Below, piece by piece: positions 37,721 through 64,000 of a stretch of 64,000 bases of DNA; positions within the stretch are counted from its first letter, which is position 1; each line of letters opens with the position of its first letter. Source of the stretch: an uncultured Bacilli bacterium (GTDB taxonomy: Bacteria; Bacillota_I; Bacilli_A; RF39; UBA660); contig CAKOLL010000005.1 of the NCBI GenBank assembly GCA_934096295.1, forward strand, positions 16,761 through 80,760, given 5' to 3'. Below the pieces are notes generated by a model. That model saw nothing but the letters and a program-made list of their open reading frames with translations, was not told where the DNA came from and did no database searches. The position numbers and the translations under genes are program-made.

Positions 37721-38725
37721 TTATTGAAACATTTTCTTTGCAGTTCTAAGCATTTGTGCAGTATAACCATATTCATTATCATACCAAGCAAGTACTTTAA
37801 CTAATTGTGCACCTTCAGCTTCAACAATACTTGTTGAAAGTCCATCAACTATAGCACCAACTTTTTTACCTAAACAATCACTTGAAACAATTGGGTCCAT
37901 AGTAAACTTAATTGTTTCATTTTGATTATCTTGAAATAATTTGTTTATTTCTTCAACACTTGTATTTCTATTAAGTTCTAGTGTTAAATCCACAACAGAA
38001 CCATCTGCAGTTGGAACTCTTAGGGCATTACCATCAAGTTTTCCAAGAAGTTCAGGAATAACTAAACCAATGGCTTTCGCAGCTCCAGTACTTGATGGAA
38101 CAATATTTTGAGCACACGCTCTTCCACGTCTAGATTTAATACCTTTTTTATGGGCAATATCCAAAGTTGCTTGATCATTTGTATAAGCATGAACAGTTGT
38201 CATAAATCCTTTTTTAATACCAATATTTTTATGTATTATATTAAGTACAGGTGCTAAACAGTTTGTTGTACAACTTGCAGCACTAACAATAACATCATCA
38301 TTAGTTAAAACATTATCGTTTACACCATATACAACAGTTTTCATTTCTCCTTTACCTGGAGCACTAATTAAAACCTTTTTAGCTCCCGCAGTAATATGTT
38401 TCATTGCATCTTCCTTTTGAGTAAACTTACCAGTACATTCAAGCACTAAATCAATTCCAAGTTCCCCCCATGGAAGGTTAGCAGGATCTGTTTCACTAAA
38501 AACTTTAATTCTTTTTACACCAGCAACAACTATTTCATTGCCTTCAGCTTTAATTTCATCTTCATGAAAGCTTCCATGAACAGTATCATATTTAACTAAA
38601 TAAGCTAAATCTTCTGCACTTGTCAAGTCATTAATAGCTACAATATCAAAATCAGTTTGTGTAACTATTTGTCTAAATGCTAATCTACCTATTCTACCAA
38701 AACCATTAATTGCTACTTTAATCAT
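37721..38725 (-). CDS. gap: type I glyceraldehyde-3-phosphate dehydrogenase
   Basis: NGFGRIGR NAD-binding motif and ASCTTNCLAP catalytic-Cys motif. Confidence 0.95.
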   Translation of the reverse strand: MIKVAINGFGRIGRLAFRQIVTQTDFDIVAINDLTSAEDLAYLVKYDTVHGSFHEDEIKAEGNEIVVAGVKRIKVFSETDPANLPWGELGIDLVLECTGKFTQKEDAMKHITAGAKKVLISAPGKGEMKTVVYGVNDNVLTNDDVIVSAASCTTNCLAPVLNIIHKNIGIKKGFMTTVHAYTNDQATLDIAHKKGIKSRRGRACAQNIVPSSTGAAKAIGLVIPELLGKLDGNALRVPTADGSVVDLTLELNRNTSVEEINKLFQDNQNETIKFTMDPIVSSDCLGKKVGAIVDGLSTSIVEAEGAQLVKVLAWYDNEYGYTAQMLRTAKKMFQ

Positions 38726-40364
38726 TATATCTTCCTCCTATAAATTCTCGCAATATTGATTCATCATTAACATATTCTCCCGGTATTGGGAAAAATTGTT
38801 TTAAGAAATCCACTAATCTTCTTGCTTCTTCATAATAAATGCTATTAACACTTACTGATAAAAGCAATGGCTCAACATAAACCTTCAAAACCCCAACTTC
38901 ATAAGCTAATGCTGTATTAATAATAACATTTGCTTGATGTATATACGGAAAAATATATTTTTCTTCTCCATTTCTTACATTTTGCCAATTATCTATTGTC
39001 TTAATTACATCATAGCCTCTCGTTCTATTATCCCTAACTATTCTTCTAAGTAATCTTAAATCAATTGTTGATACATAATTATATTTATCTATACTTAAAG
39101 GAATAAAAGGACTTAAATAAATTTTAAACTTATATTTTTCTTCAATTTCTTTTGTTAGATTTTCATTTAATGCATGTAATCCTTCAATTAAGAAAATACT
39201 TTTATCAGTCATTTTAACTTCTTCTTTATAATATTCTCTTAATCCTGTCATAAAATTATATTTTGGAAATTTAACGCTTTTCCCTTTTAACAAATCATTC
39301 AAATTTTCATTAAACAACTTAACATCTAAAGCTTCTAAACATTCAAAATCATAATTACCAAACTCATCTTTTGGATTATCGTCTCTATTAACAAAGTAAT
39401 CATCTAAACTTATTTTAATTGGATTATAACCCAGAGCTTCAAAATAAGATGCTAATCTACTTGTGGTAGTAGTCTTTCCACTTGAAGAAGGACCTGCTAT
39501 TAAAATAAATTTAATATCTTTCCTATCTTCAATAATTCTAGCAACATCTGCTATATTTAAATTAAACATTAATTCACAAGATTTAATAAAATTAATAATT
39601 TTACCATTACCAACATCTTTATTTAAATCAGTAATATATGGCATATTTAAGTTATTCAACCAACTTTTTCCATCCATAAAACTTTCAATTATTTTATCAT
39701 AATGAACATACTCAGGAACTTTACCATTGCTTCTAGTTGTTGGAAATAATAATATTATTCTGTTATTACCTAAATAAACCAATTCAAACTTTTCTAAAGC
39801 TCCTGTACTATAAGGCATTAATGAATAAAAATAATTTAAATTATTTTTTAACTTATATAAATTAACTACCTTATCACTTATATTTTGGATATTATTAGCT
39901 TTTTCATACTCCTTTTTATCATTAAAATATTTTATTGCATCTTTCGGAGAAACATTTAATCTTGTAATTATCTCATTATCACTAATTAATTTACACATTC
40001 TAGCCTTAATTTTTGATATATCTTCATGGCTTAAAATTCTAGGCCCTTTTAAAACTCCCAGCATTCCACGTGGAACACTATGTTCATAAACAACATCAAA
40101 GTCATTAAAAACCTCTTGCAAAGAAACTAAAAATAAAAACTTTAACCCTGCTTTATATATTTTATTTCCAATTAAATCATTAGTATTTATAAAATCAACT
40201 TTAACATCTTCAAGAATTTTATTATCCAAAGAAAATACCTCATTATTTATCTTATAACCCACGATATTTTCCATATTAAAATCTTTACTTGCATCATAAA
40301 ACAAAGTACCTTTTTTGTACTCATGAACAGTATTATCATTAAATGTTACTTTAACTATATCCAT
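38718..40364 (-). CDS. uridine-kinase/PRK-family P-loop kinase fused to an N-terminal ThrRS-like TGS-type domain
   Basis: P-loop GPSSSGKTTTTSRL; 548 aa. Confidence 0.55.
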   Translation of the reverse strand: MDIVKVTFNDNTVHEYKKGTLFYDASKDFNMENIVGYKINNEVFSLDNKILEDVKVDFINTNDLIGNKIYKAGLKFLFLVSLQEVFNDFDVVYEHSVPRGMLGVLKGPRILSHEDISKIKARMCKLISDNEIITRLNVSPKDAIKYFNDKKEYEKANNIQNISDKVVNLYKLKNNLNYFYSLMPYSTGALEKFELVYLGNNRIILLFPTTRSNGKVPEYVHYDKIIESFMDGKSWLNNLNMPYITDLNKDVGNGKIINFIKSCELMFNLNIADVARIIEDRKDIKFILIAGPSSSGKTTTTSRLASYFEALGYNPIKISLDDYFVNRDDNPKDEFGNYDFECLEALDVKLFNENLNDLLKGKSVKFPKYNFMTGLREYYKEEVKMTDKSIFLIEGLHALNENLTKEIEEKYKFKIYLSPFIPLSIDKYNYVSTIDLRLLRRIVRDNRTRGYDVIKTIDNWQNVRNGEEKYIFPYIHQANVIINTALAYEVGVLKVYVEPLLLSVSVNSIYYEEARRLVDFLKQFFPIPGEYVNDESILREFIGGRYND

Positions 40365-50636: not shown

Positions 50637-51737
50637 TCATCTTCCATTTTTTTCCTCTTTTTCTAAACTTTTTATATCACTTTGAGCTTGAGCAATTTTA
50701 GCATCTAATTCAGCATTTTCAATTATCAATTCATTTTTTCTTTGTTCTAGGTCTGAAAGTTCTTCAAAAGCTGCATCATCTTCAACAATAATTATATCTC
50801 GTGGATTTTTTAAATTAGCAATAGCCATTTGAACTTCAGCAGCACCGGCTCTTCCTAAATTTCTTATTCTTGTTAAATCTTCACTAGTCAACGCCAACAA
50901 ATCATCTTTAGTGTTTATTCCCGCACTTTTTAAACAAAAATAAGTTCTTGCAGAAATTCCTAAATTAATAATAGAATTTATATCCTTTCTTTCTTCTTCT
51001 AACCTTTCAAATTTTATTTCGTACGCAAAATAATTTCTAATTTTAGCATATAATCTACTTAGTTTCAGCTGAAGATCCCTACCTATATGATACATTTTAG
51101 CGATTTCTTTTGAAGTAAGCCTTTCTTCCTCAGGAATTAACCCCCAAAAACGTATAATTATCGTTTTATCAACATCTGATAATCCAACTTTATCCAAATC
51201 ATCTATACTTTTGATATAAAATTTGAAATCTTTCATATCTTCACGTATTGTGATTAAGGGTGTACTTTCAAAATACTCCTCAACATGCCAAAATTCCCTT
51301 TCCTTATATTGGTTAAAAATATATGCATTAAGTCTAAATAATCCTAAATTTCCACCAACCAAATTTAAAAATTCTTTTTTCTTTTTTTCAAAATTGATAT
51401 TATCTAAATATTTTTCTAATTGTTTATTTAACCTAATAAAATATTTGTGTTTCAAAACTGCAACAGCAACCCCTAATTCATTTTGCAATTGCAATCCCAC
51501 TGAACATTTTCCATTATCTAAAACACCATATAATTTTCTAATTATAAACGTATCTCTTTCTGATAAATATGATATTTTTGATTCATTGGTATCATATAAT
51601 TCTTGAATTATTTTTTTTATAAAATCGTTAATAGCTAACTTTTTCTGTTCTTCAGTTAACATTTCAAAAGTTTTATCACATTTAACTTTTTCAACATATT
51701 CTTTTAATACGTCATTCATTGTCATATACTTATCCAT
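50637..51737 (-). CDS. hypothetical DNA-binding protein (sigma-70 region-4-like HTH + RNAP-alphaCTD-like helix-hairpin-helix + C-terminal coiled-coil)
   Basis: KEIAKMYHIGRDLQLKLSRLYAKIR (HTH) and LTSEDLTRIRNLGRAGAAEVQMAIANL (HhH). No family assigned. Confidence 0.45.
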   Translation of the reverse strand: MDKYMTMNDVLKEYVEKVKCDKTFEMLTEEQKKLAINDFIKKIIQELYDTNESKISYLSERDTFIIRKLYGVLDNGKCSVGLQLQNELGVAVAVLKHKYFIRLNKQLEKYLDNINFEKKKKEFLNLVGGNLGLFRLNAYIFNQYKEREFWHVEEYFESTPLITIREDMKDFKFYIKSIDDLDKVGLSDVDKTIIIRFWGLIPEEERLTSKEIAKMYHIGRDLQLKLSRLYAKIRNYFAYEIKFERLEEERKDINSIINLGISARTYFCLKSAGINTKDDLLALTSEDLTRIRNLGRAGAAEVQMAIANLKNPRDIIIVEDDAAFEELSDLEQRKNELIIENAELDAKIAQAQSDIKSLEKEEKNGR

Positions 51738-61738: not shown

Positions 61739-61760
61739 CATATTTTTTCCTCCAAAAAAA

Positions 61761-61837
61761 ATGTGCACACAAACATAGGCTGATGTGGCTGCTATTTTCC
61801 AATCCTGACCAAGTTACAGCATATTTGTTGCACGGTT
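61761..61837 (-). ncRNA. ffs: small (4.5S-type) signal recognition particle RNA
   Basis: Minus strand ...ACUUGGUCAGGAUUGGAAAAUAGCAGCCACAUCAG... matches the universal domain IV motif (GGUCAGG-N3-GGAA-N3-AGCAGCC). The 5' and 3' arms pair (GUGCAACAAAUAUGCUG / CAGCCUAUGUUUGUGUGCAC). A sigma-A promoter TTGACA-17-TACGAT lies upstream at about 61842-61870, and the RNA is followed by a T-run. It sits in the conserved tadA-scr-dnaX neighbourhood. Confidence 0.6.
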
Positions 61838-62023
61838 AAATCGTATCAAATAAACTAATACATGTCAATACTTTTCATAACATTTCATGATTTAAATTTC
61901 TTGTTGATAACTAATATTTTTATTTTTAACACACTCAATTTTTTAGCATATATTAGCCAAATTTTGTAACTAGTTAAAAATATAAAATTACTTTATTTAG
62001 CAATTTTTGATATTTTTCAAAAT

Positions 62024-62186
62024 ATTTCCCGGGAAATATTTTGTTAATAATTATAGTTTTCAAACTGTTGTTAATAATAAAGATCAAACAACCATTTACC
62101 CCTTTATTTAATTAATAAAAATCATTTTATCATTTTACAAAAAAACAAATAAAAATATTATGTTAACTAATTATTTCCCGGGAAAT
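62024..62186. promoter_or_regulatory. two perfect 14-bp Noc-binding-site (NBS) palindromes, ATTTCCCGGGAAAT, 149 bp apart
   Basis: Exact matches at 62024-62037 and 62173-62186 in an ORF-free AT-rich region. The sequence is identical to the B. subtilis NBS consensus. Confidence 0.6.
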
Positions 62187-62286
62187 AATTTTCATAAAAA
62201 GAAACCATGTTTTAATAAAAAAATATTTATCACAATCGTATGTTCGCGTCAAAAAAATATTTTATTATTATATTAATGTTTCACGT

Positions 62287-63052
62287 GAAACAATATATAT
62301 TTATCTTTACCAACATTCTATTAATTAATCAATCATAATTTCTATTACGTAATATAATAATAAAGAAACATATTATCAACACACGTTTCACGTGAAACAT
62401 ACTAGAAAATACAAAAATTAATACATGATCACATCATAATAATACAAATTCCCAATAATTTTACTACACAAATAAAAAATATCTATTAAATTAACAAATA
62501 ATAATAAATTATTAACAATGTTTCACGTGAAACATAAAAAAATTATCAATATTAGTAAAATAAAAAAAAAGAAATTATCAAAAATCAAAGTAACAATAGA
62601 TATATAGAATAAGTAAAATATAAACAAATTATCAACGCACGTTTCACGTGAAACATCGCATAAAATAACAATATAACACAAGAAATAATTAAATAATCAA
62701 TAAAAAATAATATTCTATAAAAAAAGAAAGATCCAAATACTTATTTAAATGCTTATTAAATAACAAGTTATCAACATATGTTTCACGTGAAACATTAAAC
62801 TAATAATCAAATTAACCATAATTAGTACAATAAATAATATATATTTAATAAAATTAAACGTTAATTCAAATAAATATAATTTTAAAAAATATATAATTAT
62901 AAACAAGTTATCAACAACGTTTCACGTGAAACATATACTCTATTTCATTAGAATCACTGATAATTAATAATTAGTATTATTAAACATAAAATTATTAATA
63001 ACAATAATATTAAATAATTAAAAATTTATCAACACATGTTTCACGTGAAACG
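62287..63052. repeat. array of seven parS (ParB/Spo0J centromere) palindromes, TGTTTCACGTGAAACA, at 97-139 bp spacing; five of them are immediately preceded by a DnaA-box-like TTATCAACA/TTATCAACG, one by TTATTAACA, and one (62287) by no such motif
   Basis: The 16-mers sit at 62287-62302, 62384-62399, 62519-62534, 62640-62655, 62779-62794, 62918-62933 and 63037-63052. Three match perfectly and four have a single mismatch at an outermost position. The 14-bp core GTTTCACGTGAAAC is perfect in all seven. Confidence 0.8.
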
Positions 63053-63220
63053 TACATAAAATAATTCAAATAATTATAATTATTAAAAAAATATTTACTA
63101 AATTGTTTGTTGATAACTATTAGATCTTATAAAAAAATAATTAATTGCTAAAATTAATATGTGTTATTAATTCATACCTATTATACATTGTATATACCTG
63201 ATATGTAATAAAAAAGAGAC

Positions 63221-64000
63221 CTATTCAGTCCCTTCATTTGTAACATTTACAGCTGTTTTCTCAGCCACATTATCTTCCATTTGTGATTGATTAGTTTCTT
63301 CTAAAGAATCATTGTTTTGTTCTTCTTTTTCAACTAAACTTATGGTTGAAACTTTTTGATTATCCTTTAAGTTAATAAGTCTTAACCCTTGAGTGACACG
63401 ACCTAATAAGGAAATTTGATCAAGTGGCATTCTCATTGTCATACCCGAATTAGTCATAATAACAAGTTCTTGATTTTCTTGAACTATTTTTACACTAACT
63501 AAATTACCATTTTTATCAGTAATATTCATAGCTTTAACACCTTTTGATCCTCTTCTTGTTTGACGATATTCGCTTACTTTAGTTTGTTTACCATAACCTT
63601 TTTCAGTTACAAGCAATATAGTATCTTCTTCTTTAACAATTTCAGAACAAATACATTTGCTTCCATCTAAGGTAATACCCTTAACACCAGAAGCAGTACG
63701 TCCCATAACTCTAATTTCCCCTTCATTAAATTTAACCATTCTACCACTATCGCTACCTAAAAGTACTAAGTCATTACCAGTTGTTTTCTTAACATCTATT
63801 AATTTATCATTTTCTCTTAAAGAAATACAAATCTTTCCACTATTTCTAATGTTAGCAAATTCACTAATTAATGTTTTCTTAACAACTCCGCCTTCCGTAG
63901 CAAATAATAAGTATTTAGATTCTTCTTCACGATTAATTTGAATAACAGCATTAATTCTTTCATCTTTTTCAACTTGAAGCAAATTAACAATTGGAATTCC
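63221..64000 (-). CDS. gyrA: DNA gyrase subunit A, C-terminal (beta-pinwheel) domain; the gene continues beyond the window end
   Basis: Repeated GyrA-box-like blades (...RGSKGVKAMNITDKNGNLVS..., ...GRTASGVKGITL...). The ORF is open to the window boundary. Confidence 0.85.
   Translation of the reverse strand, partial: GIPIVNLLQVEKDERINAVIQINREEESKYLLFATEGGVVKKTLISEFANIRNSGKICISLRENDKLIDVKKTTGNDLVLLGSDSGRMVKFNEGEIRVMGRTASGVKGITLDGSKCICSEIVKEEDTILLVTEKGYGKQTKVSEYRQTRRGSKGVKAMNITDKNGNLVSVKIVQENQELVIMTNSGMTMRMPLDQISLLGRVTQGLRLINLKDNQKVSTISLVEKEEQNNDSLEETNQSQMEDNVAEKTAVNVTNEGTE

Follow-up and report, generated by a model that had tools for sequence, protein, structure and literature searches.

A dense parS array with adjoining DnaA boxes next to gyrA, a probable origin-proximal centromere of an uncultured gut Firmicute

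What is a tight cluster of chromosomal parS sites doing in non-coding DNA next to gyrA? In Bacillus subtilis, around ten parS sites are spread over hundreds of kb, mostly within genes. In the 64-kb stretch of contig CAKOLL010000005.1 from an uncultured Bacilli bacterium that we analysed here (the window), seven parS palindromes lie at 62277-63052, in 0.78 kb of non-coding DNA. The original prediction offered two readings of this array: a dedicated chromosomal centromere and ParB-loading hub in a small genome, or the remnant of an integrated replicon's partition locus. We find the first to be the best reading (a relative, OZ006970.1, has a 1.52-Mb circular chromosome) and assign a probability of roughly 0.7 to the array being the origin-proximal chromosomal centromere of a low-GC gut Firmicute, organized as a composite hub on which proteins load.

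The seven-copy array is real. The 14-bp core GTTTCACGTGAAAC is exact in every copy, and the 16-mer TGTTTCACGTGAAACA is perfect in three of them, the other four differing by one outermost base (Table 1), such that the sites take the form of the 16-bp inverted repeat tGTTtCACGTGAAACa that marks chromosomal parS. Dinucleotide-preserving shuffles of the window yield a mean of 0.03 matches, and no further match with two or fewer mismatches was found anywhere else in the window. Start-to-start distances are 107, 135, 121, 139, 139 and 119 bp, without a consistent helical phase; of the 97-139 bp intervals originally given, the upper value thus stands and the lower becomes 107, and the first site starts 10 nt below the predicted array start of 62287. 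A conserved unit of about 30 bp recurs around the sites, and our repeat comparison confirmed this part of the original prediction. The parS cores are fixed while the spacers have diverged, in agreement with the proposal that selection acts on the sites. As in the Spo0J/parS system of B. subtilis, the palindrome is the 16-bp TGTTNCACGTGAAACA and lies in the origin domain, with presumed roles in ParB loading, spreading and SMC recruitment. The differences are that no second parS cluster occurs in at least 72 kb of DNA near the origin, and that a search close to oriC found no gene of the ParB type in the window genus. Separately, CATTCCACGTGGAACA at 40062-40077, within a uridine-kinase-like gene (38718-40364, minus strand), resembles TGTTCCACGTGGAACA, a symmetric parS variant of two relatives (loci L012 and L042), from which it differs at two positions of one arm. 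Some 22 kb separate it from the array, and it may represent a weak or half parS.

We next looked at what adjoins the palindromes. Calling as a DnaA box any 9-mer with at most one mismatch to TTATCMACA (window background, 0.0011 per position and strand), we found a box directly before six of the seven parS sites, always on the plus strand, in a single orientation and with a gap of 1-2 nt. Four of these boxes are TTATCAACA, which is one base off the canonical DnaA box TTATCCACA, while TTATCAACG and TTATTAACA occur once each. A box at six of seven sites has a chance probability of about 3e-11 if the sites are assumed to be independent, which overstates their independence because the array copies share ancestry by tandem duplication. 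The spacers have diverged past alignment, whereas the box has been retained beside parS; the conserved repeat unit of the original prediction therefore extends beyond parS as claimed, although the DnaA box within it had been overlooked. Across the 1.38-kb intergenic spacer as a whole there are 12 boxes, compared with about 3 expected from the window background, and TTATCAACA is found in exact form six times, four of them within the array. The spacer is hence a cluster of TTATNCACA-type boxes outside oriC.

The box variant TTATCAACA recurs in the organism's own predicted origin. TTATCAACA, TTATCAACG and TTATTAAC(A/G) are present in the predicted oriC of the window genus and its relatives: the dnaA-dnaN spacer of the window species carries TTATCAACA followed by TTATTAACG; a congener (L173) has 14 boxes upstream of dnaA, including three copies of TTATCAACA and five of TTATCCACA, with TTATCAACG in its dnaA-dnaN spacer; and a relative (L007) has six exact TTATCAACA and no TTATCCACA upstream of dnaA. 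The C-terminal domain of DnaA is canonical, with the GGRDHSTV motif present. Among 109 parS of the clade, 25 have a box at 1-5 nt with its ACA end towards parS, other offsets and the opposite orientation being close to zero, compared with 2 of 438 non-clade parS among the matches listed.

The array lies between gyrA and the signal recognition particle (SRP) RNA gene, followed by tadA and dnaX, and Pfam confirmed the flanking genes and thereby the position originally assigned. The 1.38-kb intergenic stretch has a GC content of 17.8% (14% in the spacers between sites) and, as first described, is AT-rich and free of credible open reading frames (ORFs), the longest in the array stretch being 53 aa and of low complexity. 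We considered a hidden gene or RNA and rejected it: besides the short ORFs, an Rfam scan returned only the neighbouring SRP RNA and a distant T-box, with no RNA gene within the spacer, and promoter-like matches there are no commoner than in shuffles. The minus strand carries nearly all long ORFs of the window, and the GC skew of the window is strongly negative over its full length. In L001, a contig of the same organism that runs past the window end, the gene order is dnaA-dnaN-comK-recF-gyrB-gyrA-[spacer]-tadA-dnaX-ybaB-recR-bofA-holB, and 7.6 kb separate the dnaA stop from the first parS downstream of it, on the leading strand. Co-directional genes, uniform negative skew and gene order together place oriC just past the right end of the window, and the array therefore falls within the origin-proximal domain typical of chromosomal parS. 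The array as a second origin, or as oriC proper, was rejected, as there is no skew switch and dense boxes flank dnaA 7.6 kb away.

Repeats in AT-rich DNA misassemble easily, and a collapsed or chimaeric repeat had been named with the original prediction as a way in which the array could prove false. The 1.48-kb gyrA-tadA spacer is, however, base-identical in four independent ENA metagenome assemblies, made from different samples with different assemblers and showing the same seven sites, and the stretches between sites are unique sequence. This excludes a collapsed repeat, and the likelihood of an artefact of any kind is next to nil.

The abundance of boxes raises the alternative that the locus serves chiefly to titrate DnaA or to control replication, akin to datA or a DnaA-box cluster (DBC) or as the second part of a bipartite oriC, with parS secondary. 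The excess of boxes, the extreme AT-richness and the closeness to oriC all speak for it. Moreover, the DBCs of B. subtilis restrain initiation, act genetically with Spo0J/Soj and function only when oriC-proximal (Okumura et al. 2012, PMC3245932). Like these clusters and Escherichia coli datA, the present boxes lie outside yet near oriC; in contrast to B. subtilis, where boxes and parS are separate loci, they are interleaved with parS base to base. Against this alternative, parS cores are the most conserved component and occur in every clade species, while boxes are missing in about half; one parS of the window has no box; and there is no switch in GC skew or gene orientation, the dense-box predicted oriC flanking dnaA instead. 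We therefore regard a primarily titrating element as unlikely, and a centromere that also carries DnaA boxes as the better account.

Beyond the array we identified a third type of site. Noc-binding sites (NBS) of Firmicutes were reportedly treated by Wu et al. in 2009. The spacer contains two perfect copies of the palindrome ATTTCCCGGGAAAT, at 91 and 240 bp past the last parS on the origin-distal side. The window contains no other copy (in shuffles, the 12-nt NBS core is matched 0.88 times when up to two mismatches are allowed). Both copies lie beyond the coordinates of the original prediction, which was right about the parS sites of the region but missed these two. ATTTCCCGGGAAAT is the core of the NBS, for which the specificity residues have also been described (Jalal et al. 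2020, PMC7383237). While NBS are scattered around the B. subtilis chromosome (PMC4331003), both window sites adjoin the parS array, and in relatives NBS are likewise clustered with parS or alternate with it. Clade-wide, 24 perfect NBS occur in 26.7 kb around arrays versus 8 in 220.7 kb elsewhere, a density about 25-fold higher.

A candidate reader of these sites is encoded in the sister species (L006/L133), whose DnaA, GyrA C-terminus and TadA are 97%, 94% and 65% identical to those of the window species; a copy in the window species itself would lie outside the sequence covered. The sister-species gene follows gidB (L133:10001-11200) and specifies a ParB-family protein of 399 aa with the helix-turn-helix (HTH) GLSQSAISNKLRLL...ISERHAR. 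Its residues Q173, K179 and R201 (numbering of Jalal et al.) form the NBS-specific pattern, and its best matches among solved structures are Noc (7NG0, 7NFU and 7OL9), ahead of Spo0J. Noc-type proteins of the clade are 380-419 aa long (also L010:1797-2966, L011:1496-2638, L171:1771-3024 and L172:1705-2964), with a long, low-complexity acidic or proline-rich linker followed by a conserved C-terminal end, ...EEFDFEDxYQIxIKIDK. They begin at the ParB-N domain and have no N-terminal extension; in B. subtilis Noc this extension carries the membrane-targeting helix. The L007 protein (L007:2014-2895) has a degenerate HTH, GIPVSVLEAKLKLLYM...ERHAK, from which conserved DNA-contact residues have been lost, and no NBS was found in the 20-kb L007 locus; judging from its sequence, this protein may no longer bind NBS. 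In addition, the predicted oriC upstream of dnaA in L173 contains ATTTCCGGGAAT (L173:7590-7610), an NBS-like palindrome that is one bp shorter per half-site, among the DnaA boxes.

Table 1. Sites of the array and features of the surrounding intergenic region, in window coordinates.
Feature	Position	Strand	Details
parS 1	62277..62292	.	Perfect TGTTTCACGTGAAACA; farthest from oriC; sole parS without an adjoining DnaA box
Module 2	62373..62399	+	DnaA box TTATCAACA 62373-62381; gap 2 nt; parS CGTTTCACGTGAAACA 62384-62399
Module 3	62509..62534	+	DnaA-box variant TTATTAACA 62509-62517; gap 1 nt; perfect parS 62519-62534
Module 4	62629..62655	+	DnaA-box variant TTATCAACG 62629-62637; gap 2 nt; parS CGTTTCACGTGAAACA 62640-62655
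Module 5	62768..62794	+	DnaA box TTATCAACA 62768-62776; gap 2 nt; perfect parS 62779-62794
Module 6	62908..62933	+	DnaA box TTATCAACA 62908-62916; gap 1 nt; parS CGTTTCACGTGAAACA 62918-62933
Module 7	63026..63052	+	Closest to gyrA/oriC; DnaA box TTATCAACA 63026-63034; gap 2 nt; parS TGTTTCACGTGAAACG 63037-63052
Solo DnaA box	63108..63116	-	TTATCAACA; opposite orientation; gyrA side of the array
Solo DnaA box	61902..61910	-	TTATCAACA; opposite orientation; about 35 nt upstream of the -35 element of the SRP RNA promoter
NBS palindrome, first	62024..62037	.	ATTTCCCGGGAAAT; perfect match to the NBS core
NBS palindrome, second	62173..62186	.	ATTTCCCGGGAAAT; perfect; 149 bp from the first
gyrA 3' end	63221 onward	-	Flanking gene, origin side
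Terminator-like hairpin and T-run, end of gyrA	63213..63235	-	Origin-proximal edge of the intergenic region
SRP RNA gene and promoter	61754..61868	-	Gene 61754-61839; promoter TTGACA-17-TACGAT 61840-61868; origin-distal edge of the intergenic region

The arrangement was then compared across relatives, namely seven species retrieved through DnaA homologues (DnaA 52-97% identical) and 14 species-representative genomes from the genome scan described below. The order gyrA-[parS]-tadA-dnaX, with parS in the spacer, was found in at least 22 species including the window species, each with 1-9 sites. The number of parS, their spacing (40-420 bp) and the spacer sequence vary from species to species. 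Since these turn over while the sites and their place are kept, selection acts on both sites and location, and the pattern of conserved sites among free spacers is that expected of chromosomal parS. The loci examined in close relatives are devoid of parS both between dnaA and gyrA and on the rpmH-gidB-noc side, and the lone parS outside the spacer stands just after the tadA stop in L011. In L088, from an uncultured Bacilli bacterium of rabbit gut, one parS lies between gyrA and tadA and ten, repeating exactly every 55 bp, lie between tadA and dnaX (L088:5384-5879), the densest array seen.

Some relatives pack all three kinds of site, NBS, DnaA box and parS, into 44 bp. In the L011 module ATTATTTCCCGGGAAATAATTTTATCCACAATGTTTCACGTGAAACA, 4 nt separate a perfect NBS from the canonical DnaA box TTATCCACA, and a perfect parS begins 1 nt after the box; of the five copies of this module, one has a 1-nt variant NBS and one a 1-nt variant box. 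NBS and parS alternate in L032 and L034, with periods of 63 and 125 bp, and three NBS lie within the six-parS array of L171. The L007 array (L007:18288-19153; DnaA 72% identical) has no DnaA box beside parS.

The repeats of L007 have a further peculiarity. Each of the five parS is inside a longer palindrome whose outer arms differ between copies yet stay complementary, with a T-run behind the palindrome and, after the T-run, tttttgCCTAAnnTATGCCaAAAAATAGC, a unit of about 45 nt that is conserved; these repeats look like terminator-like hairpins or a second repeated element. A perfect parS also directly follows the stop codon of tadA in L011 (20430-20445) and of gyrA in L007 (18298-18313), in both cases at the centre of a longer stem with Ts behind it, and from this arrangement the palindrome appears to double as an intrinsic terminator.

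The same comparisons bear on whether the array derives from a partition locus, like F sopC, that an integrated plasmid or phage left behind. The tandem layout superficially resembles a plasmid centromere such as F sopC or P1/N15 parS, both being tandem ParB-family binding sites, and paired parS occur on 33 IMG/VR viral contigs. However, the array lies between gyrA and SRP RNA/tadA/dnaX, a position common to at least 21 species, which points to a chromosomal centromere rather than a mobile remnant. A check for parA and parB, proposed for the contig with the original prediction, found neither in the window, and the annotated neighbours of the array are all housekeeping genes; tblastn with ParA, ParB and Noc of relatives likewise returned no homologue in the window. 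No similarity was found among 72,556 plasmids, the sole phage match was marginal and AT-rich (a Corynebacterium phage, 70% identity over 217 nt), and the composite box-parS motif gave 3 single matches in 2.9 million viral contigs. Finally, the irregular spacing (107-139 bp) and the unrelated spacers are unlike iteron-type arrays, the sites have the chromosomal consensus, the array is not on a mobile element, and no partition operon is adjacent. On these grounds the integrated-replicon half of the original prediction fails; a mobile origin is effectively refuted and we rate it as highly improbable.

To place the array among other genomes, we searched 185,579 species, each represented by a single genome, for pairs of perfect parS cores with 95-125 nt between them (parS about 110-140 bp apart) and obtained at least 120 loci from many phyla. 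Density was counted as the maximum number of parS (at most two mismatches) within 1 kb. Among the matches listed, 31, 39, 21 and 14 loci have a maximum of 2, 3, 4 and 5 parS per kb, respectively, and 7, 2, 4, 1 and 1 loci reach 6, 7, 8, 9 and 10. Thus, 29 of these 120 loci have at least 5 parS per kb, frequencies that are sample values rather than totals. The original statement that a tight cluster is atypical of a chromosome was therefore overstated: tight chromosomal parS arrays are common in sequence space, unlike in model organisms, and far commoner than these would imply.

Multi-parS clusters are themselves known, for example parS1-4 of Pseudomonas. Such parAB-adjacent clusters share with the present array the presence of several consensus parS in non-coding DNA near oriC. 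What differs is the setting. Outside the clade, among the matches listed, parA or parB occurs within the 8-kb chunk at 70 of 106 loci and the nearest parS is a median of 130 nt from parA; within the clade, parA is nearby at 0 of 14 listed loci, the array lying instead between gyrA and tadA. Fused boxes are also confined to this clade, at the listed frequencies given above (25/109 versus 2/438).

Which protein reads the sites? At the ancestral gidB-noc-soj-spo0J locus, the window genus (L133) as well as L007, L010 and L171 have only the Noc-type gene, followed by a penicillin-binding protein gene, whereas L011 and L172 retain noc-parA-parB with the ParB-type HTH GKSRSHITN...MGHAR. It seems that soj-spo0J has been lost from the ancestral locus in a sub-clade that keeps the array. 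Seven perfect cores argue for the existence of a parS reader. Its gene must be in the approximately 1.4 Mb outside the inspected DNA, or the reader must be something unexpected.

One could accordingly suppose that the palindromes are not read by ParB at all, being bound by another protein or acting as hairpin or terminator elements after loss of soj-spo0J. The presence of only a Noc-type paralogue at the ancestral locus of the window genus and three relatives is compatible with this, as are the parS of some relatives that sit inside longer, terminator-like palindromes with T-runs. Yet the window copies have neither extended stems nor T-runs, and all seven are exact matches, over 14-16 bp, to the pan-bacterial ParB consensus. 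The same arrays are found in L011 and L172, which keep noc-soj-spo0J with a ParB-type HTH, and as about 100 kb of a genome of about 1.5 Mb was inspected, ParB may be encoded elsewhere. We judge a reading without ParB to be quite improbable.

Taking the array as a composite centromere, we propose the following model. A ParB-type clamp dependent on cytidine triphosphate would load at every parS and slide outward. With seven such sites side by side, clamps would load at a high rate and a single large partition complex would cover the origin region, to the benefit of SMC loading and origin segregation. With DnaA on the boxes beside parS, the locus would double as an origin-proximal DnaA-box cluster, in which the boxes could titrate DnaA or control it through ParB occupancy. 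With gaps of 1-2 nt, DnaA and ParB would have to contact or exclude each other, so that centromere occupancy and initiator availability could be coupled. A Noc-type paralogue would nucleate at the two NBS beside the array. One 1.4-kb spacer would then gather DNA-binding proteins of segregation, replication initiation and nucleoid occlusion, and the layout suggests that replication, segregation and division control meet on one stretch of DNA.

Several observations weigh against this interpretation. The array units probably arose by duplication, which means that the six box-bearing sites are not fully independent. Arrays of about half of the clade species have no DnaA box, and the box is hence dispensable for centromere function. 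The side of parS on which the box lies varies by species, being origin-distal here and origin-proximal in L011; modules are uniformly oriented within each species, but the difference between the two leaves a simple directional-roadblock model unsupported. No ParB-type gene with a parS-specific HTH, marked by R173 and G201, was located for the genus in the roughly 100 kb inspected, and in the sister species neither soj nor spo0J was found within 10 kb of the noc gene. Finally, whereas the sites, their fusion, position and conservation can be read directly from the DNA, the binding of ParB, DnaA and Noc at the array is a prediction from sequence.

Initiator binding at a centromere has a precedent in another phylum. 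In Caulobacter crescentus, DnaA reportedly binds at the centromere (Mera et al. 2014, cited in PMC11151105). The two systems are alike in having an initiator site, predicted from sequence in our case, within the parS region, thus linking initiation and segregation; they differ in that the box here is fused to parS at 1-2 nt, six times over.

New in the present locus are the composite DnaA box-parS(-NBS) architecture, of which no description was found in the searchable literature, its fixed gyrA-tadA position uncoupled from parAB and, as it seems, its persistence in a sub-clade without soj-spo0J at the ancestral locus. More tentatively, and at somewhat less than even odds, the fused box-parS modules (with NBS in, for example, L011) could be an undescribed origin-organizing element in which gaps of 1-4 nt leave DnaA, ParB and Noc either touching or shutting one another out, such that centromere occupancy gates the pool or activity of the initiator and vice versa. 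A more extreme variant is that the genus is without any ParB, its parS arrays being read by another protein. Model species couple initiation, segregation and division through proteins (Soj-DnaA, Spo0J-Soj and Noc), and their DNA sites are separate. In the present locus, the DNA itself appears to encode the coupling, with initiator, centromere and nucleoid-occlusion sites fused in short repeated modules near oriC, and the position of this arrangement is conserved over a large clade of uncultured, small-genome gut bacteria. The modules offer a compact, synthesizable substrate of 44-60 bp for in vitro tests of cooperation or competition between DnaA, ParB and Noc.

The host is a low-GC (26%) uncultured Firmicute of animal and human gut metagenomes with sporulation genes. 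Among named members of the genome collection, it is closest to "Candidatus Onthocola stercorigallinarum" (Bacilli incertae sedis), with 74% identity in the GyrA C-terminus, and the 1.52-Mb chromosome mentioned above is that of a related circular metagenome-assembled genome. A ComK-family gene lies between dnaN and recF in every species examined (L001:1975-2403), an unusual conserved insertion in the origin block. Beside oriC in the sister species, the interval between jag and mnmE contains an insertion that encodes a 431-aa PT-HINT/intein-like protein and two HTH_3 regulators (L133:4492-5787). The dnaA genes of three loci contain a single in-frame stop (L007:9533-10885, TAA at codon 138; L009:6630-7982, TGA at codon 150; L012:7014-8390, TAA at codon 206); L007 and L009 are from the same species in different samples, and their stops differ. 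These broken ORFs probably reflect a selection effect of the 208-aa query fragment, which favours short proteins, rather than biology. Lastly, window positions 50637-51737 (minus strand) encode a 366-aa protein in which Pfam recognizes a single domain, the C-terminal domain of RNA polymerase alpha (residues 248-305), and which is not a normal rpoA product.

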